From NCBI GenBank assembly GCA_041666915.1, contig JBAYFZ010000001.1, positions 73,086-137,085 of the forward strand: 64,000 bases of DNA, written 5' to 3'. This document shows, in pieces, positions 2,934 to 62,712 of this stretch. The first letter of the stretch is position 1; the number at the start of each line of letters is the position of its first letter. Under the pieces are notes generated by a model. That model did no database searches, was not told where the DNA came from, and was given only the letters and a program-made list of their open reading frames with translations. The position numbers were made by a program, and so were the translations under genes. Source of the stretch: Minisyncoccota bacterium. Its GTDB lineage: Bacteria; Patescibacteriota; Minisyncoccia; Phycocordibacterales; PALSA-1337.

Positions 2934-3998
2934 TTGTATATGAATAAAAAAATAATAAACAACATCAACATTCGTTCATCTGCTGCAGAGTATCTAACCT
3001 TTGTGTCTGCAACAGGAAATCAAGAAAACGCGATTGAAATGCGTTATGAGGACGAAAACATTTGGCTTACGCAAAAACTGATAGCTGAGCTTTATGGTGT
3101 TTCTGTCCAGGCGATAGACCAGCACGTCAAAACACTTATTGAAGTTGGCGAGCTTGATGAGGCAACTATCAAGCAGTACTTGATAGTTCAAAATGAGGGG
3201 AAGCGAGTAGTGCAAAGAAAGGTGGATCACTATAATCTCCAAGCAATTATTTCCGTTGGTTTCAAAATTGAAAATGAGCGAGCTGTGCAGTTTCGTAAAT
3301 GGGCGCGTCAGATCGTAAAAGACTACACTATTCAGGGCTGGACGATGAATGTAGATAGACTCAAACAAGCATATCAATTTGATAAAGAATTCTTCAAACG
3401 TCAATTGCAAAAAATCCGTGAAATTCGTCTCAGTGAACGCATGTTTTATCAAAAAGTTACGGACATTTATGCTACTAGCGTTGATTACGACCCATCTTCC
3501 TCGATAACACTTAACTTCTTCAAGAAAGTGCAAAACAAACTTCATTATGCAGTACACAGACATACTGCCCCAGAACTGATTGTGGAGCGGGCAAATGCTA
3601 CTAAGGATCATATGGGGCTTGAAACTTGGGAAAGTGCACCAAGAGGTAAAATCCAAAAATATGATGTTTCCGTAGCCAAAAATTACCTCACTCCAAAAGA
3701 GATGGAATTTCTTGAAAGACTTGTCTCTATGTATTTAGATTACGCCGAGCTCCAAGCAGATCGTAATATACCAATGACAATGGAAGACTGGGCGAAACGC
3801 TTGGATAAATTTATTGAGTTTAATGGAGCGGAATTATTGGTTAGTGCTGGAAAAATCAGTCATGAAGAAGCCATAATTCATGCTCAAACTCAATTTGAAA
3901 AATATCGCATTGTGCAAGACAAGGTATTTGAAAGCGACTTCGATCATTTTATGCAGTTAGAAAAAGCAGAAAATGAATACAAAAAATATCGCATATAG
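2934..3998 (+). CDS. RhuM-family virulence-associated protein
   Basis: Motifs YNLQAIISVGFKIENERAVQFRKWARQIVKDY typical of the Virulence_RhuM family. Confidence 0.55.
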   Translation: MYMNKKIINNINIRSSAAEYLTFVSATGNQENAIEMRYEDENIWLTQKLIAELYGVSVQAIDQHVKTLIEVGELDEATIKQYLIVQNEGKRVVQRKVDHYNLQAIISVGFKIENERAVQFRKWARQIVKDYTIQGWTMNVDRLKQAYQFDKEFFKRQLQKIREIRLSERMFYQKVTDIYATSVDYDPSSSITLNFFKKVQNKLHYAVHRHTAPELIVERANATKDHMGLETWESAPRGKIQKYDVSVAKNYLTPKEMEFLERLVSMYLDYAELQADRNIPMTMEDWAKRLDKFIEFNGAELLVSAGKISHEEAIIHAQTQFEKYRIVQDKVFESDFDHFMQLEKAENEYKKYRI

Positions 3999-4119: not shown

Positions 4120-5184
4120 ATGAAAGTCAAAGATTTAAAGAATAAATTCCTAACTCGTTTCTCCAATGATGTCGGTATAGATCTCGGTACCGCCAACACT
4201 CTAGTTTACGTACAAGGCAAAGGTATAGTGGTCTCTGAACCTTCTGTGGTCGCTGTCAACGAAAAGACCGGGCAGGTGGTGGCTGTTGGGAAGGCTGCAA
4301 AAGAAATGCTCGGTAGAACCCCTGTGCACATCACTGCTGTACGACCACTCGTAGACGGTGTCATCTCTGACTTTGAAGTTACAGAAGAAATGATTGCTTA
4401 TCTATTGAAGCGTGCTGGAGAATTTATGCCAAAACGATTCCTTGGTCCACGAGTAGTGGTCGGAGTTCCTTCTGGAGTTACCAATGTGGAAGTTCGAGCT
4501 GTACGTGATGCTACGAAAAATGCTGGAGCTAGAGAAGTCTACGTCGTAGAACAACCCATCGCTGGAGCTATTGGTATTCGCTTACCGATCTTTGAACCTA
4601 TCGGAAGTATGATCATAGATATTGGTGGAGGCACCGCTGATATTGCCGTTATTTCACTCGGGGGTATTGTCCAGTCAAAGAGTCTCAAAGTTGCTGGTGA
4701 TAAATTGAATAGTGATATCATTTCTTATATTCGTAACGAATTCAAAATTCTCATTGGTGAGACTACAGCTGAACAAGTCAAAATATCTGTAGGAGCCGTT
4801 GTACCAGGAGAACCTTTGGAAACAACTATTCGTGGACGCGATCTCATCACAGGTTTGCCACGCGAAGTCGTCATCACTGATTCAGATATTCGTGAAGCTA
4901 TCGGTCAATCTATTGAAGTCATCGTTTCCTCTACTAGAGAAGTCCTTGAAACAACTCCACCAGAGATCCTTTCTGACATTATGCGAAGGGGAGTATTCTT
5001 GGTCGGTGGCGGAGCACTTATAAAAGGTTTGGACAGATTGCTTTCGGAGACTCTCCAATTACCAGTCACTATAGCTGACGATCCTCTCACTGCTATCGCT
5101 CGTGGTGCTGGTATTATTCTAGAAGATTTGGAAACCTATAGTCCTATTTTATTACACAGTGAAGATGACTTACTTAGAACCTAA
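4120..5184 (+). CDS. mreB: rod shape-determining protein MreB
   Basis: DLGTANTLVYV, actin-like ATPase motifs, GGGTADIAV; full length 354 aa. Confidence 0.9.
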   Translation: MKVKDLKNKFLTRFSNDVGIDLGTANTLVYVQGKGIVVSEPSVVAVNEKTGQVVAVGKAAKEMLGRTPVHITAVRPLVDGVISDFEVTEEMIAYLLKRAGEFMPKRFLGPRVVVGVPSGVTNVEVRAVRDATKNAGAREVYVVEQPIAGAIGIRLPIFEPIGSMIIDIGGGTADIAVISLGGIVQSKSLKVAGDKLNSDIISYIRNEFKILIGETTAEQVKISVGAVVPGEPLETTIRGRDLITGLPREVVITDSDIREAIGQSIEVIVSSTREVLETTPPEILSDIMRRGVFLVGGGALIKGLDRLLSETLQLPVTIADDPLTAIARGAGIILEDLETYSPILLHSEDDLLRT

Positions 5185-5950
5185 AAGACGTAGTAATACA
5201 AAAATAATCACGCTTATCACGGTCGTTGTCTTTATTGTATTTATTTTAATTCAAATATTTATACCACATATTTTCTCGGCTATATTCACCAGTATGGTCG
5301 CGCCATTTTGGCGAGCAGAATTTTCTATAGAAAGTGGAAGTCTCTCTTCACCTTCAGCTTTGCTTCGCGAGAATGAAGCTTTGAAACAAGAACTATCTTC
5401 GGTATTGGCTAGGATGAATGTTATTGAGTATATTGATTTTGAGAATTCTGAACTCCGTTCTCAAATGAGTAGAGGTTCGTCTACTACTCCGCATGTTTCA
5501 GTTGTTGTTTTGAAGCGACCACCTTTTTCATCTTATGATGAACTTATCATTGATGCCGGATTAGATCGTAATATTTCAACTACCAGTACCGTCTATGCTA
5601 ACGGAAATATCCCTATTGGTAGAGTCTTTGAAGTTTCGGGGCAGACTTCAAAAGTTATTCTTTTTTCTTCACCCAATCAAAAACAAGAAGTGCTCATTGG
5701 TCCGACTCATATTCCAGCTACAGCTATAGGTCGTGGCGGAGGTCAATATGAGGTAGAATTGCCAAGGGGTTTACAAGTTAATGAAGGTGATTTCGTCATT
5801 CTAGCTTCTTCTGATACTAGGCCAATAGGTAAAGTTGTTTCAATCAGTTCTGATTCAGCCGAACCTTTCCAAAAAATACTTTTTTCTCCACCAATCAATA
5901 TTTATGAATTAAGATGGGTCTCGGTTGATGTTGGTGGCAAGAAAAGATAA
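5159..5950 (+). CDS. mreC: rod shape-determining protein MreC-like
   Basis: N-terminal TM helix, coiled-coil segment and C-terminal beta-rich domain, immediately downstream of and overlapping mreB. Confidence 0.65.
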   Translation: MKMTYLEPKRRSNTKIITLITVVVFIVFILIQIFIPHIFSAIFTSMVAPFWRAEFSIESGSLSSPSALLRENEALKQELSSVLARMNVIEYIDFENSELRSQMSRGSSTTPHVSVVVLKRPPFSSYDELIIDAGLDRNISTTSTVYANGNIPIGRVFEVSGQTSKVILFSSPNQKQEVLIGPTHIPATAIGRGGGQYEVELPRGLQVNEGDFVILASSDTRPIGKVVSISSDSAEPFQKILFSPPINIYELRWVSVDVGGKKR

Positions 5951-5953
5951 TTT

Positions 5954-6338
5954 GTTGTCATTCCCGCGAAGGCGGGAATCCAGGATATTACCAAGACATA
6001 ACGAATAGTATGAATAAGGTATATTATGTTTATATATTAGCGAATGATAAGAATGGTACTTTGTATATAGGTGTTACTAATGATCTTAGAAGAAGGTTAT
6101 ATGAACATAAGAATAACCTAGTAAAAGGATTTACAAAGAAATATAATGTCCATAAACTAGTTTGGTACGAATATACTAATAGTATTGATTCTGCAATACA
6201 AAGAGAGAAACAGCTTAAGAAATGGAACCGTAAGTGGAAGATTAGACTAATTGAAGAAACCAATCCTATTTGGAAAGATTTATCTAATGACGATCTGTAG
6301 TGGTAATATCCTGGATTCCCGCCTTCGCGGGAATGACA
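5954..6338. mobile_element. 385-bp element: GIY-YIG nuclease gene flanked by perfect 37-bp terminal inverted repeats identical to the window's MITE family
   Basis: Left arm TGTCATTCCCGCGAAGGCGGGAATCCAGGATATTACC (5954-5990). Right arm is its exact reverse complement (6302-6338). The mreC stop and the GIY-YIG stop abut the arms. Confidence 0.6.
6010..6300 (+). CDS. GIY-YIG nuclease family protein (UPF0213/YhbQ-like, 96 aa)
   Basis: YYVYILANDKNGTLYIGVTNDLRRRLYEHK motif (GIY-YIG with conserved R and E). Confidence 0.8.
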   Translation: MNKVYYVYILANDKNGTLYIGVTNDLRRRLYEHKNNLVKGFTKKYNVHKLVWYEYTNSIDSAIQREKQLKKWNRKWKIRLIEETNPIWKDLSNDDL

Positions 6339-6344
6339 CAAAAA

Positions 6345-6626
6345 ATGAACAAAAATACAATTAAAAGATTAATATGTGACTTACTGATCTTAATATCAGT
6401 TATGAATGGTTGGTGGCCAATTGCTATAGTTGTTGGCTTATTCGGTAATTGGTTCTTCTTGTATTTTATAGAAATAATAATCGCTGGAGTAATATTTGAT
6501 TCACTTTTTGGTTACAACCAATATCTTGGAGTAGTCGGATATTATGGAACAATAATAACTGTAGTCATTTTCATCATAATTTCCGGATTGAAGAAAGTGT
6601 TAGGAAGAGGAAATAATATGTCATAA
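6345..6626 (+). CDS. small integral membrane protein (3 TM) in the MreD position
   Basis: Hydrophobic 93-aa ORF between mreC and the PBP2 gene. The upstream part of the called ORF is read-through of the repeat arm. MreD identity is positional inference only. Confidence 0.35.
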   Translation: MNKNTIKRLICDLLILISVMNGWWPIAIVVGLFGNWFFLYFIEIIIAGVIFDSLFGYNQYLGVVGYYGTIITVVIFIIISGLKKVLGRGNNMS

Positions 6627-12368: not shown

Positions 12369-13343
12369 ATGCAAAGTGTACATGAACCGGTTCTTTTACA
12401 TGAGATAGTGGCAAACTGTGTCATTTCCGCGAAGGCGGAAATCCAGGATGTCACCGAGAATGTATCTAGTGGTAATACACTGGATTCCCACCTTCGTGGG
12501 AATGACAAGAAGACCCCTTGGTACCTCGACGGTACTCTCGGTGGAGCAGGTCACGCTTTGGCTATAGCAAAAGCATTCGCTGGCAAGTTGAATATTATCG
12601 GCTTGGACAGAGATGCTACGGCTCTAGAGAGAGCAAAAGGGACTTTGGCAGGCAAAGCAGAGAAGGTGATACTGGAATGTGAGAATTTTCGTAATTTAGA
12701 TAAAGTTTTGGAGAAAAATGGTATTGATTCAGTCGCTTTGATTCTAATGGATTTGGGTATTTCATCTGACGAACTAGATAATTCTGGTAGAGGGTTCACT
12801 TTTCAGAAAGACGAACCTTTGCTCATGACTATGGGAGATCCAAAATCTTATCCATTCACAGCAAAAGATATTGTGAACGATTGGGATGAAGAAGTGATCG
12901 CCGATATTATCTACGGTTATGCCGAAGAGAGGTTTGCAAGAAAGATCGCTAAAGCAATAGTCAATTATAGAGAGAAGAAAAGTATAGAAACATCGGGAGA
13001 GTTGGCAGAAATAGTGAAAATGTCAGTACCGGGCTTTTATAAGAGAGGAAAGATTCATCCGGCTACAAGAACATTTCAAGCTTTACGTATTGCAGTCAAT
13101 GATGAGCTTAATTCATTGAAAGAAGGATTGAGAAAAGGTTACGAAAAGTTGGATAAAGGTGGACGAATGGCAATTATTTCATTCCATAGTTTAGAAGATC
13201 GTATCGTCAAAGATTTTTATAAAGAAAAAGCAAAAGAAGGTTCCAAAATTATTACAAAAAAACCGATTACCGCTTCTTTGCAAGAAATTGCAGAGAATCC
13301 AAGGTCAAGAAGTGCAAAATTAAGGATTATTGAAAAAATATGA
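12369..13343 (+). CDS. rsmH: 16S rRNA (cytosine1402-N4)-methyltransferase RsmH, with an in-frame ~29-aa repeat-element insertion near the N-terminus
   Basis: HEPVLLHEIV...YLDGTLGGAGHA and downstream SAM-binding motifs. The segment ISAKAEIQDVTENVSSGNTLDSHLRGNDKK is encoded by a MITE copy. Confidence 0.85.
   Translation: MQSVHEPVLLHEIVANCVISAKAEIQDVTENVSSGNTLDSHLRGNDKKTPWYLDGTLGGAGHALAIAKAFAGKLNIIGLDRDATALERAKGTLAGKAEKVILECENFRNLDKVLEKNGIDSVALILMDLGISSDELDNSGRGFTFQKDEPLLMTMGDPKSYPFTAKDIVNDWDEEVIADIIYGYAEERFARKIAKAIVNYREKKSIETSGELAEIVKMSVPGFYKRGKIHPATRTFQALRIAVNDELNSLKEGLRKGYEKLDKGGRMAIISFHSLEDRIVKDFYKEKAKEGSKIITKKPITASLQEIAENPRSRSAKLRIIEKI
12419..12506. repeat. MITE-family copy inserted in-frame within rsmH
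   Basis: TGTCATTTCCGCGAAGGCGGAAATCCAGGAT...CACTGGATTCCCACCTTCGTGGGAATGACA. Arms are slightly diverged. The internal GTATCTAGTGGTAATACACTGG is shared with the pheT copy. Confidence 0.7.
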
Positions 13344-15409: not shown

Positions 15410-15512
15410 TGTCATTCCCGCGAAGGCGGGAATCCAGGATATTACCATTGAAGATATTATAATAGTTGTTTGTTCGTAATAATCCTGGATCCCCGCCTTC
15501 GCGGGGATGACA
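15410..15512. repeat. MITE-family copy (intergenic ftsI-murF), 103 bp
   Basis: TGTCATTCCCGCGAAGGCGGGAATCCAGGATATTACC...AATCCTGGATCCCCGCCTTCGCGGGGATGACA. The left arm is identical to the arms of the GIY-YIG element. Confidence 0.75.
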
Positions 15513-45812: not shown

Positions 45813-45934
45813 TGTCATTCCCGCGAAGGCGATTTAGCAAAATCGTGTCGAATGGACCGGGAATCCATGGTTACCACAAGATATAGACTGTTGATTCGTA
45901 ATAATCCTGGATTCCCGCCTTCGCGGGAATGACA
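45813..45934. repeat. MITE-family copy (subfamily with a 27-bp insertion in the left arm), intergenic
   Basis: TGTCATTCCCGCGAAGGCG[ATTTAGCAAAATCGTGTCGAATGGACC]GGGAATCCA...TTCGTAATAATCCTGGATTCCCGCCTTCGCGGGAATGACA. Confidence 0.75.
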
Positions 45935-49563: not shown

Positions 49564-49689
49564 TGTCATTCCCACGAAGGCGATTTAGCAAAATCGTGTC
49601 GAATGGACCGGGAATCCAGTGTGTTACCACTTAGTATGCTGACTTTTAGTTCGTAATAATCCTGGATTCCCGCCTTCGCGGGAATGACA
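49564..49689. repeat. MITE-family copy (same subfamily as 45813-45934), intergenic eno/MFS
   Basis: TGTCATTCCCACGAAGGCG[ATTTAGCAAAATCGTGTCGAATGGACC]GGGAATCCA...CCTGGATTCCCGCCTTCGCGGGAATGACA, plus a partial extra GGAATGACAAAAA at 49697-49709. Confidence 0.75.
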
Positions 49690-49708
49690 ACAACAGGAAT
49701 GACAAAAA

Positions 49709-55777: not shown

Positions 55778-55824
55778 GTTGGCGTAAGTATGCGGAATCT
55801 TTGGTAAATATGCAAGTCCCGTTA

Positions 55825-55914
55825 TGTCATTCCCGCGAAGGCGGGAATCCATGTCAGACCACAAATAAACTTTTCTTGGTAATATCCTGGATTCCCGCCT
55901 TCGCGGGAATGACA
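55825..55914. repeat. MITE-family copy in the response-regulator promoter region
   Basis: TGTCATTCCCGCGAAGGCGGGAATCCATGTCAGACCACAAATAAACTTTTCTTGGTAATATCCTGGATTCCCGCCTTCGCGGGAATGACA. Confidence 0.75.
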
Positions 55915-55970
55915 CAAGAGGACCAACGGATTTGACTTAACCCCGCGATTTTGTTACCTTATGTCTACAT

Positions 55971-59508: not shown

Positions 59509-61611
59509 ATGAAAGTCTCACGAAATTGGTTACAAACATATTTTGATAAAGAAATTCCAACAGCAGAGAAGTTGGATGAGCTTTTTACTTTCCATGCTTT
59601 TGAAGTTGAAGGAGTAGAGACTTTGACTGGGCCTGGTATCGCTAAACCCGATTCTATTCTTGACGTGAAGATTCTTCCAGACCGTGCTCATTATGATCTT
59701 TGTCACAATGGTATCGCTAGAGAAATTTCAGTCCTGACCGGTTTACCTATGAAAAATCGCTTTGCTGAAGAGCTCAAAGTTACTAGCAAAGAGAAGCCTT
59801 CCGTAAAAATCATTTCCGGAGGTGAAGCCTTCGGAAGCCTCGCTTCCGGAAAGCAGTTTTGTCGTCGTTATACGGCTAGAACTATTGAATTGGGTAGTTC
59901 AAAAGCGGTAGGAACATCCCCTGTATGGCTCAAAAATGCTCTAGAATCAATAGGACAACGCTCTATCAACTCTATCGTGGATATTACAAATTACGTCATG
60001 TATGACATTGGTCAACCATTGCATGCTTTTGATGCCGATAAGGTCAAAGGTGGTATTACTATTCGTCCAGCCAAAGATAGTGAAAAAATAACTTTGCTTG
60101 ATGGTAGAGAGATCATTTTGACTTCTGTTGATAATGTTATCGCCGATGAAGAAGGTCCTCTTGTCATCGCTGGCGCAAAAGGTGGTAGACGCGCAGAAAT
60201 CGGTGAGTCAACAAAAAAGATAATTATAGAATCTGCCAATTTTGATCCAACTATGGTTCGTCGCACTGCTACGAAATATGATATTCGTAGCGATTCTTCA
60301 AAGAGATTTGAAAATGAAATAACTGCTGAGCTCGCTATGAATGGTATGAATAATGTTTCAGCTCTTATTTTAGAAATGATTCCTGATGCAAAATTCGGTC
60401 CTGTTGTTGATGGATATCCAGTAGAACAAACACCGACTGTTATAGATTTTGATCCAGCTTATTTGAAAGAACGTCTAGGAGTAGATGTTCCATTGGATGA
60501 AGCAAAAAGTATTTTGGAAAGAATGGGGATCGTGGTTTCTGTCATTCCCGCGAAGGCGGGAATCCAGGATATGACCAAGGAATCTGTATCTAGTGGTAAT
60601 ACACTGGATTCCCGCCGAAGTTTATCCTCGGAGAGGACGGTAAATGACACAGAACAATGGATTCTTACCATTCCTTTTGAACGCCTAGACCTTATCATTA
60701 AAGAAGATATTGTAGAAGAGGTAGGACGTGTCTACGGTTATGATAAGGTCAAAGGAATACTTCCACCTTTACAAAAAGATGAATCAAATAAAAAGGTCTC
60801 AGAAATTTTGCCGTTATTCTATGTTTCAGAGAAAATAAAGAGTACCTTGGTTGAACTAGGTTTCTCTGAAGTTAGCCTTTACGCTTTGGTTGAAAAAGGT
60901 GATATAGAAATCGCTAAACCTTTGGCCAAAGATAAAGGTTTTGCTCGCAACAATCTTTCAGGTGGAATGATGGCTTGTGTAGAAAAAAATGCTCTCAATG
61001 CAGACCTCCTCGGCCTTGAAGTTGTGAAAGTCTTTGAGGTTGGACATGTTTTCACAGACAAATCAGAACAAGTTCATTTATCTATTGGTGTTGCACAAAT
61101 AAAAAAGGTAAAAGGTTTGAAAGCAGAAAATATTATTACGGAAGCGATCAAAAAGATTGAAGAAAAATTGATGGTCAGTATAAGTGGTAAGACGGTGAAT
61201 GGTAAAACTGGTAACTACAGTGTTTTTGAAATTGATCTAGAATCTATCGTCAAATCTTTCCAATCACCTATTTTATTTGAAGCTTTGAATTTCACCCCAG
61301 CTTCTACAAATCGTTACAAGAAATTCTCGTTATATCCATTCATCGTTCGCGATGTTGCGGTCTTCGTACCAGAATCGGTTGAAAGTGAAAAAGTTTGGAA
61401 TGTTATAGAAAAGGGTATTGCAGAAGCTGGTGCCAATGATCTGCTCGCACGTCATTCTTTGTTTGATACATTCAAAAAAGAAGGAAAAGTCTCTTACGCT
61501 TTCCGTATGATTTTCCAATCTAAAGAGAGGACTCTTACCGATGAAGAAGTAAATAAGACTATGGAGGTTATTTATTCTGGCTTGAAAGGGGAAGGTTGGG
61601 AGGTTAGGTAA
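59509..61611 (+). CDS. pheT: phenylalanine--tRNA ligase beta subunit, with an in-frame repeat-element insertion of about 36 aa
   Basis: MKVSRNWLQTYF N-terminus, B3/4 and B5 regions, C-terminal FDVA-like domain. The segment VIPAKAGIQDMTKESVSSGNTLDSRRSLSSERTVND is encoded by a MITE copy. Confidence 0.85.
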   Translation: MKVSRNWLQTYFDKEIPTAEKLDELFTFHAFEVEGVETLTGPGIAKPDSILDVKILPDRAHYDLCHNGIAREISVLTGLPMKNRFAEELKVTSKEKPSVKIISGGEAFGSLASGKQFCRRYTARTIELGSSKAVGTSPVWLKNALESIGQRSINSIVDITNYVMYDIGQPLHAFDADKVKGGITIRPAKDSEKITLLDGREIILTSVDNVIADEEGPLVIAGAKGGRRAEIGESTKKIIIESANFDPTMVRRTATKYDIRSDSSKRFENEITAELAMNGMNNVSALILEMIPDAKFGPVVDGYPVEQTPTVIDFDPAYLKERLGVDVPLDEAKSILERMGIVVSVIPAKAGIQDMTKESVSSGNTLDSRRSLSSERTVNDTEQWILTIPFERLDLIIKEDIVEEVGRVYGYDKVKGILPPLQKDESNKKVSEILPLFYVSEKIKSTLVELGFSEVSLYALVEKGDIEIAKPLAKDKGFARNNLSGGMMACVEKNALNADLLGLEVVKVFEVGHVFTDKSEQVHLSIGVAQIKKVKGLKAENIITEAIKKIEEKLMVSISGKTVNGKTGNYSVFEIDLESIVKSFQSPILFEALNFTPASTNRYKKFSLYPFIVRDVAVFVPESVESEKVWNVIEKGIAEAGANDLLARHSLFDTFKKEGKVSYAFRMIFQSKERTLTDEEVNKTMEVIYSGLKGEGWEVR
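60540..60648. repeat. MITE-family copy inserted in-frame within pheT (right arm degenerate)
   Basis: TGTCATTCCCGCGAAGGCGGGAATCCAGGATATGACC...GTATCTAGTGGTAATACACTGGATTCCCGCC|GAAG... Internal sequence is shared with the rsmH copy. Confidence 0.7.
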
Positions 61612-62469: not shown

Positions 62470-62712
62470 ATGCCCACCACCTACATTCTTCTCTGTTCCG
62501 ATTCAACTTTTTATATTGGAAGTACCAACGATCTAGAAAAACGTTTACATCAGCATAACCACGCAAAATCTGGCGCTCATTACACCAAGATTCGTAGACC
62601 AGTAAGACTTGTTTGGAGTGAGGAACATCCGACTTTGGCAGAAGCTCGAGCTAGAGAGGTGGTGTTGAAAAGACTGACGAGAAAGGAGAAGGAGGAATTA
62701 ATTAAGAGTTAG
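62470..62712 (+). CDS. GIY-YIG nuclease family protein (UPF0213/YhbQ-like), second paralogue
   Basis: TYILLCSDSTFYIGSTNDLEKRLHQHN...RRPVRLVWSEEHPTLAEARAREVVLKRLTRKEK. Not flanked by the MITE arms. Confidence 0.75.
   Translation: MPTTYILLCSDSTFYIGSTNDLEKRLHQHNHAKSGAHYTKIRRPVRLVWSEEHPTLAEARAREVVLKRLTRKEKEELIKS

Follow-up and report, generated by a model that had tools for sequence, protein, structure and literature searches.

The stretch analyzed in this study (the window; 64,000 nucleotides (nt), positions 73,086 to 137,085 of contig JBAYFZ010000001.1, assembly GCA_041666915.1) belongs to a metagenome-assembled genome of the Paceibacterota (Patescibacteria) and carries, within the operon mreB-mreC-(small membrane gene)-PBP2, a 383-bp unit in which a gene for a small GIY-YIG nuclease is enclosed by two inverted repeats of 37 bp, hereafter called the arms. 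[quoted passage not shown] Our analysis suggests that the unit belongs instead to the Ssn system, which consists of site-specific single-stranded DNA (ssDNA) nucleases and of their hairpin repeats, called NTS in Neisseria (CGTCATTCCCGCGMAVGCGGGAATCYRG) and SRM in their general form (Chenal et al. 2025, Nat Commun 16:2388, PMC11893778). The features of the unit are as follows:

5956..6338, no strand: the whole putative SRM-ssn-SRM cassette, 383 bp, in the spacer between mreC and the mreD-like gene.
5956..5992, + strand: left arm, exact 37-mer TGTCATTCCCGCGAAGGCGGGAATCCAGGATATTACC.
6010..6300, + strand: putative ssn gene, encoding a 96-amino acid (aa) single-domain GIY-YIG nuclease, probably of the Ssn family (PF01541, E = 1e-18).
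6302..6338, - strand: right arm, exact reverse complement of the left arm.

The presence of a 96-aa GIY-YIG open reading frame (ORF; 6010-6300) between perfect 37-bp inverted arms, as proposed earlier, was confirmed by exact arm matches and by Pfam. The right arm had been placed correctly at 6302-6338, whereas the left arm, given as 5954-5990, actually lies 2 bp further on, at 5956-5992. The location between the mreC stop codon and the small membrane-protein gene was also borne out: the cassette starts 5 nt past the stop codon (5948-5950) and ends 6 nt ahead of the true ATG (6345) of the membrane gene, after which the PBP2 gene follows. The ORF, the only one between the arms, nearly fills the space available to it, with a 17-nt leader on one side and a stop codon abutting the right arm on the other. 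The left arm begins with an SRM/NTS-like hairpin motif (5956-5983) consisting of TGTCAT, an 8-bp stem (ATTCCCGC/GCGGGAAT) with the loop GAAG, and CCAG, and this 28-nt motif is continued by a 9-nt inner extension (GATATTACC). No T-run follows the arm hairpins. The complete 37-mer has five matches with three or fewer mismatches in the window, against none in 100 shuffles.

Concerning the protein, PF01541 spans residues 5-78 of the 96 aa, no other domain was found by Pfam, and the predicted catalytic residues are Y8, Y19, R29, H33, E66, and N73. The characterized Ssn enzymes are single-domain GIY-YIG proteins of about 94 aa (CDD cd10448, GIY-YIG_unchar_3), and cleavage by SsnA of N. meningitidis is abolished by mutation of Y6, Y17, and E64 (PMC11893778). 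In a BLASTP comparison, the cassette protein was 61% identical, over 88 aa and without gaps (E = 6e-41), to the 94-aa SsnA ortholog of N. gonorrhoeae, well beyond the published Ssn criterion of E < 1e-10. Residues Y8, Y19, and E66 align with Y6, Y17, and E64 of the gonococcal protein, which has the three residues exactly as published and is encoded amid dense NTS arrays, and they were invariant among 28 homologs. The gonococcal ortholog was taken from NZ_CP119140.1, as the single match in this 2.17-Mb record of PLSDB, a database that lists two 2.17-Mb gonococcal chromosomes as plasmids. Pfam, NCBIfam, and PDB yielded the superfamily only, and no Ssn-specific model or structure was found in NCBIfam or PDB. 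When the window gene was compared with a 91%-identical copy at another locus (L001 in our numbering), the ratio of nonsynonymous to synonymous substitutions (dN/dS) was 0.08 at dS = 0.5, and all 74 arm nt were identical (100%), indicating that the protein and the arms are both constrained.

The arms agree with the Neisseria NTS consensus at 27 of 28 positions, and the published SRM expression, HGTCWYN(0-2)YYVSBRHN(0-5)WNVSBRGN(0-2)RNCYNB, matches at 5956-5983 (+) and at 6311-6338 (-). This expression is over-represented within the window, where it has nine matches compared with a mean of 0.16 in shuffles, and the 22-nt hairpin core is present in 11 copies where none is expected. A single arm folded as ssDNA reaches -8.9 kcal/mol (z = -3.3). 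The stem also shows covariation, since seven of its eight pairs were changed on both sides, 99.7% of the cells were paired, and none of 500 shuffles reached this level, in a count for which the arms from outside the window had been chosen with a hairpin filter; no G-T wobble intermediates occurred among 384 stem cells. Unbiased support for the covariation is provided by three variant arms in the window that were found by sequence alone, each of which differs from the consensus by two substitutions forming one compensatory pair, an outcome estimated roughly at 1 in 100 per arm if substitutions were random. The base preceding GTCAT is T in 106 of 130 arms, and the 5' flank farther out is pyrimidine-rich and unconserved. 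At the gathering threshold, no Rfam family matched the arms; Francisella small RNA (sRNA) B, FtrB (RF02748), matched below it, with 27.7 bits against 66 (5944-6029, +; 6275-6352, -). The FtrB consensus itself holds guCauuCcCGCGuAGGCGgGaauC, an SRM/NTS motif, and this sRNA family may have been built on an Ssn-related repeat.

The match of the arms to NTS/SRM, together with the homology to SsnA and the aligned catalytic residues, points to the cassette protein as a site-specific ssDNA nuclease of the Ssn family, here from Patescibacteria, and to the 383-bp unit as an SRM-ssn-SRM cassette whose nuclease would act on its own hairpins in ssDNA; we put the probability of this identity at roughly 0.85. 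The previous claim that such an element is undescribed for bacteria does not stand, as the Ssn/SRM system with its NTS-ssnA-NTS layout has been published (Chenal et al. 2025, PMC11893778). The locus is thereby an additional Ssn member, in Patescibacteria, of a system whose repeat, enzyme activity, and appearance resembling an insertion sequence (IS) were already in print. Four features discussed below were not found in Chenal et al. 2025, namely doublets that are strictly paired and REPIN-like, their position in frame inside essential genes, the lack of duplications, and an explicit empty site.

Two other identities within the GIY-YIG superfamily were tried and rejected for the cassette protein. 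Membership of the homing endonucleases disagrees with the lack of a DNA-binding domain in the 96 aa, with a sub-threshold score for the intron-endonuclease model TIGR01453 (27.1 bits against a cut-off of 56, over residues 7-42 only), and with the location of the gene in a chromosomal operon spacer. For a UPF0213/YhbQ identity, the match to the UPF0213 structure 1zg2 gave only E = 5e-4, compared with E = 2e-15 to 1ywl for the other GIY-YIG gene of the window:

62470-62712: second GIY-YIG gene, UPF0213/YhbQ-type (PDB 1ywl, E = 2e-15; 1zg2, E = 8e-12), without arms.

Compared with SsnA, the protein encoded there shows 40% identity in an alignment with gaps, and its clade is not that of the cassette gene. 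This ORF had been called an armless paralog; its existence and its lack of arms were confirmed, whereas the label of paralog was not, as the PDB matches assign it to UPF0213, a separate GIY-YIG family, and this type explains why it has no arms.

The association between ssn genes and arms was found to recur widely. The protein has more than 8000 database relatives, with 68-91% identity among the matches listed and many of them on very short contigs, and a scan of one genome per species yielded at least 591 ssn loci. The counts given here refer to the best 80 of these loci, which come from Patescibacteria, Delta-, Gamma-, and Alphaproteobacteria, Bacteroidota, Chloroflexi, Cyanobacteria, Spirochaetes, Planctomycetes, and others; Zixibacteria are also represented, and the homologs as a whole, those of Patescibacteria included, are 60-91% identical. 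Protein identity across phyla is 60-72%, whereas MreC is only 61% identical even to that of a relative with conserved gene order. At most of the 80 loci, an inverted-repeat search revealed arms built as TGTCATTCC-stem-loop-stem-GGAATCCAG. Under a structure-aware rule, inward-facing hairpin arms stood on both sides of the gene at 59 of the 80 loci, on one side at 18, and on neither at three, compared with 10 of 202 controls (5%). The published SRM expression, which is too strict for distant arms, gave two-sided arms at 18 of 80 loci, inward-facing in 17 of the 18. A looser rule (GTCRT plus hairpin) was sound beside the gene and too permissive genome-wide, and the flank counts of solo arms and doublets that it gave at the 80 loci were discarded. 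These recurrence data uphold two expectations of the earlier note, that GIY-YIG ORFs lie between inverted arm pairs elsewhere and that arms and gene form one unit rather than a chance pair of MITEs at a housekeeping gene.

Individual loci show how the unit varies. On another contig of the same sample, the 91%-identical cassette with identical arms (L001) lies between murB and secA. A 78%-identical cassette (L002), flanked by genes for an aminoacyl-tRNA synthetase and for an M50 protease, has the inner 7 nt of its arms changed on both sides so that they are still mutually complementary; the doublet resident at the same locus carries the inner arm type of the window and not that of the L002 coding copy, indicating that a simple parent-to-offspring relation is not general. 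Homologous neighbors were shared in only 13 of 11,026 pairs of flanks. Three genomes contain two coding copies among the 80 loci (L007/L025, L018/L043, and L012/L073); in the first of these (contig CAWETF010000001.1, 1.3 Mb), the two proteins are 64% identical and the stems differ (TTGCCCGG... versus TTCCCGCG...), which suggests separate pairs of nuclease and arm specificity within one cell. Internal stop codons mark five of the 80 copies as pseudogenes.

In the window, all arm copies fall in seven inward-facing pairs, comprising the coding unit and six gene-less doublets of 89-126 bp, so that doublets outnumber coding copies 6 to 1. The doublets share the full 37-bp arm, which is longer than the conserved 28-nt motif. 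They are located as follows, none with a strand:

12419..12507: doublet in frame in rsmH, adding about 30 aa; both hairpins with compensatory substitutions.
15410..15512: intergenic doublet; left arm the same as the cassette arm at all 37 nt.
45813..45934: intergenic doublet; 27-nt insert in the loop of the left hairpin.
49564..49689: intergenic doublet; same 27-nt loop insert as at 45813-45934.
55825..55914: doublet between a response-regulator gene and rpsB; right arm identical to the cassette arm (37/37 nt).
60540..60650: doublet in frame in pheT, adding 37 aa within the B5 domain; right hairpin with a loop insert.

The copy at 15410-15512 had been described as having the same arms as the cassette, which is correct for its left arm and not for its right arm, where two compensatory hairpin changes and a different inner segment were found; as ssDNA, this doublet folds into one long hairpin (-37.9 kcal/mol, z = -11.9). 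The doublets at 12419 and 60540 retain '..TCTAG TGGTAATA', similar to the stop-codon end of the ORF. Two loop-insert variants recur, one of 27 nt (ATTTAGCAAAATCGTGTCGAATGGACC) at 45813-45864 and 49564-49615, and the other (gaagtttatcctcggagaggac) at 60590-60649 and at 4979-5038 of L001, and long-loop arms with a nested hairpin occur in other phyla too (e.g., L018, L023, L029, and L047). The terminal 10-mer GGAATGACAA of the doublet at 49564-49689 recurs 5 nt downstream (GGAATGACAACAACAGGAATGACAA; window 49680-49705) and could be the remnant of a second end.

Several copies reside in genes and leave their ORFs intact, adding 30-37 residues in the form of peptides of the type VIPAKAGIQ...SGNTLDSRLRGNDK. 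In rsmH, the 30 extra residues are missing from an 87%-identical RsmH (P0121/L122) and from most of 120 aligned homologs, and in pheT, the B5 domain has 100 aa on a profile of 67 positions. The same situation was observed outside the window, with an in-frame half element in secA of L001 (~4975-5040), of the same variant as the right half in pheT, and an in-frame doublet in the M50 protease gene of L002 (3107-3193). The 'empty' rsmH linker of L122 (~250-290) contains TGGTTATT-GGT-AATAACCA, an 8-bp palindrome that looks like joined element tips (TGTCATT...AATGACA) and might have arisen by chance, by decay of a copy, or as the footprint of an excision.

The arms also create an annotation problem, as they give rise to false N-terminal extensions and to spurious peptides, 'VIPAKAGIQ...LRGNDK' and 'IPAFAGMT' for instance; arm-derived peptides in the window are typically 'IPAFAGMT' and 'CHSREGGNP'. 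Gene calling runs neighboring ORFs through the arms, with the membrane gene called from GTG 6300 ('MVISWIPAFAGMTQK...'), where its ortholog places the start at 6345, and the response-regulator ORF stretched to 55915 through the arms (55778-55915). An ORF of the RhuM family (virulence-protein-like; 2934-3998), just upstream of mreB, is unrelated to the cassette.

The site without the cassette, with mreC followed directly by the membrane gene, was seen in a relative with conserved gene order (L123, L124), in which the mreC TAA is followed by TGCC and then by the ATG of the orthologous membrane gene, a spacer of 4 nt. The MreC of this relative is 61% identical, and the gene order is the same from mreB through PBP2, greA, and lysS to mraZ-rsmH. 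No copy of the repeat family was present in 35 kb of the relative, while the corresponding 12 kb of the window holds three. This relative came from a large protein database, whereas MreC, when used to scan metagenomes, retrieved relatives at 23-39% identity only, all of them distant, and no precise empty site; at 33 more distant mreB-mreC loci, ssn was never found after mreC. For target-site duplications, proposed earlier as a mark of the copies, 66 elements were examined at offsets of 0-5 and lengths of 2-5, and direct repeats were no more frequent than by chance. The polymorphic sites also anticipated were not found among the near-identical strains examined: the cassette is unchanged in a strain of another sample (L088, 99.9% identical), and so is the doublet 55825-55914 in a near-identical strain from another sample (L125).

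With regard to the function of the nuclease, Ssn enzymes require the hairpin repeat to be ssDNA for binding, place their cut 'a few nucleotides upstream' of it, and are inactive on double-stranded DNA (dsDNA), on RNA, and on the reverse strand (PMC11893778). By analogy with the Neisseria and Wolbachia enzymes, the protein of the window would bind an arm only in single-stranded form and with the 8-bp hairpin folded, on ssDNA of the kind that arises at replication forks, during repair, or from incoming transforming DNA. It would recognize the conserved flanks, YGTCAT and ATCCAG, and introduce a nick a few nt 5' of YGTCAT. The forward, cleavable strand of the motif is + for the left arm and - for the right arm, and one nick is predicted at the outer edge of each cassette arm, on opposite strands, a few nt 5' of 5956 for the left arm and on the bottom strand just beyond 6338 for the right arm. 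The gene-less inverted doublets, which are REPIN- or NIME-like, would rely on the coding copy in trans. GIY-YIG chemistry is hydrolytic, without strand transfer, and a GIY-YIG hydrolase is unable to rejoin DNA. Since the enzyme only hydrolyzes, any joining step must come from the host and would be supplied by its replication, repair, or recombination. Cutting of the window arms by the 96-aa protein, and the role of such cutting as the driver of dispersal, are inferred from these analogies, and a host-level role in handling incoming ssDNA may exist in addition to spread.

We give about even odds to a spread of the cassette and doublets, past or ongoing, as insertions that leave no target-site duplication, both within genomes and from one to another, with joining by host replication or repair. 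The discoverers noted the IS-like NTS-ssnA-NTS layout and a parallel to RAYT/REP and left mobility as a hypothesis (PMC11893778); our literature search found no follow-up demonstrating Ssn transposition. A mobile unit of arms and gene, as previously envisaged, is upheld insofar as the unit is recurrent and probably insertional, given the 59 of 80 loci, the empty site, and the complementary arms of L002, whereas its description as a classical transposon is not. Several observations weigh against spread by insertion. The deltaproteobacterial trio L008, L023, and L025, which accounts for six of the 13 pairs with shared neighbors, is alike in both flanks, which indicates that the locus has been inherited vertically and stably in this lineage at least. 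Because even the closest relatives available are distant, at 61% MreC identity, the empty site gives only a loose date for the insertion, and the junction in the 87%-identical rsmH is not clean, so that the element ends cannot be fixed to the base. The lack of insertion polymorphism in the cassette (L088) and in the doublet 55825 (L125) speaks against recent activity in particular. The cleavable strands of the inverted pair are opposite and no joining activity is known; the role demonstrated in Neisseria is control of transformation at the level of the host, not transposition (PMC11893778). The stronger proposal, that SRM-ssn-SRM is a still active class of transposable element, mobilized by a GIY-YIG ssDNA nuclease, moving via a hairpin of single-stranded DNA as intermediate, leaving no target duplications, and driving REPIN-like doublets able to land in frame in essential genes, is put forward only tentatively.

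A rival explanation is a purely domesticated host gene that restricts or processes ssDNA, for instance incoming transforming DNA, in which the arms would be recognition or autoregulatory sites and the repeats would have spread by recombination or slippage rather than through Ssn. Patescibacteria are thought to depend on incoming transforming DNA. The only demonstrated role, a reduction of about 5-fold in the transformation of N. meningitidis by NTS-bearing DNA through SsnA, fits this explanation (PMC11893778), as do the dN/dS of 0.08, the fixation of the cassette and of one doublet in near-identical strains, and the shared flanks of L008, L023, and L025. It is at odds with the unrelated flanking genes at nearly all loci and the empty site in the syntenic relative, with genomes carrying two copies and with pseudogene copies, with a protein identity of 60-72% across phyla when MreC reaches 61% to the syntenic relative, and with doublets that landed in essential genes. 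We consider it a somewhat unlikely account in its pure form, while domestication and past mobility can coexist.

The previous proposal of an autonomous dsDNA cut-and-paste transposon, with a GIY-YIG transposase and MITEs as its deletion derivatives, could draw on the perfect terminal inverted repeats, the doublets with the same 37-bp arms, the '..TCTAG TGGTAATA' end retained at 12419 and 60540 like the stop end of the ORF, and insertion sites that vary between genomes. However, no duplications were found in the 66 elements, the chemistry is hydrolytic without strand transfer, and the inner arms of the L002 doublet differ in type from those of the L002 coding copy; moreover, characterized Ssn enzymes leave dsDNA uncut and cleave one hairpin strand only (PMC11893778). 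The absence of duplications, of dsDNA cutting, and of any activity beyond hydrolysis makes the classical mechanism very improbable, and with it the view of the unit as the parent of classic MITEs. Marginally less improbable is an invasion of the homing type, in which the doublet would be older and a selfish ssn ORF would have entered its center and spread to other doublets by break-induced repair. In its favor, the ORF takes up nearly all the room between the arms, doublets exceed coding copies by 6 to 1 in the window, and the classic homing enzymes include GIY-YIG nucleases. On the other hand, the predicted cut lies outside the arms and not at the doublet center, the protein has no DNA-binding domain and scores 27 bits against 56 with the intron-endonuclease model, and intermediate doublets with partial ORFs were not seen. 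A pair of chance MITE insertions flanking a housekeeping YhbQ-like gene, or arms acting as terminators or as an sRNA, has a negligible probability: a YhbQ/UPF0213-type gene does exist at 62470 and the arms do match Rfam FtrB weakly, but 59 of 80 loci have arms on both sides, the background being 5%, and the window gene is of the SsnA type, not UPF0213, and is missing from the mre operon of relatives. For a terminator or sRNA, the T-run is lacking, no G-T wobbles occur in 384 stem cells, and SsnA does not bind RNA (PMC11893778).

Returning to the SRM-ssn-SRM cassette as a unit that may be, or may have been, spread by insertion, our data provide comparative evidence on the question that the discoverers left open, namely whether NTS-ssnA-NTS units move as elements of their own or serve the host as domesticated tools. 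Beyond the Neisseria locus, the Patescibacteria case adds a compact cassette, an empty site, a second copy at an unrelated locus, in-frame paired doublets, and the lack of duplications. To our knowledge, no IS family uses a GIY-YIG ssDNA nuclease, and if Ssn-dependent transposition were demonstrated, an extra enzymatic class would be added to the prokaryotic transposons. If it holds true, the reading as an active element would also link mechanistically the NIMEs of Neisseria, RPE-like insertions of Rickettsia, and the repeats of the candidate phyla radiation (CPR).

Among known systems, Ssn/NTS shares with the unit a single-domain GIY-YIG protein of about 94-96 aa with catalytic Y/Y/E, a repeat of the form YGTCATTCCCGCG-loop-CGCGGGAATCCAG, the presence of the repeat on both flanks of the gene, and over-represented repeats; repeats on both flanks are typical of ssn genes (PMC11893778). 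The differences are the Patescibacteria host and the arms, which in the window form a perfect 37-bp inward pair abutting the ORF. At gonococcal ssnA (L126, NZ_CP119140.1 1880787-1884041), by contrast, the nearest NTS copies face outward in long alternating NIME-like arrays, the opposite of the window and of most of the 80 loci. In addition, the window copies are all paired doublets, several of them within coding genes, whereas only 2% of NTS lie within genes in N. meningitidis (PMC11893778). Rickettsia is among the SRM-rich genera (PMC11893778). The core of neisserial dRS3, ATTCCC-N8-GGGAAT, equals the stem of the window arms. NIMEs are short segments bounded by inverted dRS3 and are doublet-like, but they form intergenic arrays rather than dispersed single doublets. 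Rickettsia palindromic elements (RPE) lie in frame in essential protein genes without destroying them, as do four doublets here.

More distant systems share either the fold or the terminal repeats. The GIY-YIG homing endonucleases (I-TevI, Seg proteins) have the catalytic fold in common with the cassette protein, although they possess a separate DNA-binding domain and cut dsDNA, and the fold is also shared by UPF0213/YhbQ/SLX1-like nucleases, UPF0213 being the family of the 62470 gene and not of the cassette gene. A classical terminal inverted repeat transposon with its MITEs was rejected as a model, as target-site duplications are lacking and the sole ORF encodes a GIY-YIG protein, not a DDE or serine transposase. 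In IS200/IS605, subterminal hairpins are likewise read as ssDNA and cleaved a few nt off the hairpin, without the DDE chemistry bound to inverted repeats and without duplications; there, however, the two cuts are made in the same strand, the ends do not form inverted repeats, and TnpA both cuts and rejoins, whereas the strands of the cassette are opposite and no joining activity is encoded. Because the cleavable strands are opposite, the scheme of single-strand excision is not directly transferable. No HUH (Y1) transposase was found in the cassette, where Pfam gave GIY-YIG only, and the likeness to RAYT and IS200/IS605 is architectural. A literature search on GIY-YIG with MITEs or with REPINs found nothing relevant. 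RAYT/REPIN systems rely on an HUH/Y1 transposase with a covalent intermediate that can religate, to which the GIY-YIG hydrolase is not homologous. Nevertheless, both systems have one or few coding copies flanked by inverted hairpins and many dispersed gene-less doublets, both lack target-site duplications, and recognition of the hairpin in ssDNA is central to both, so that the unit resembles RAYT/REPIN more closely than a DDE transposon with its MITEs.

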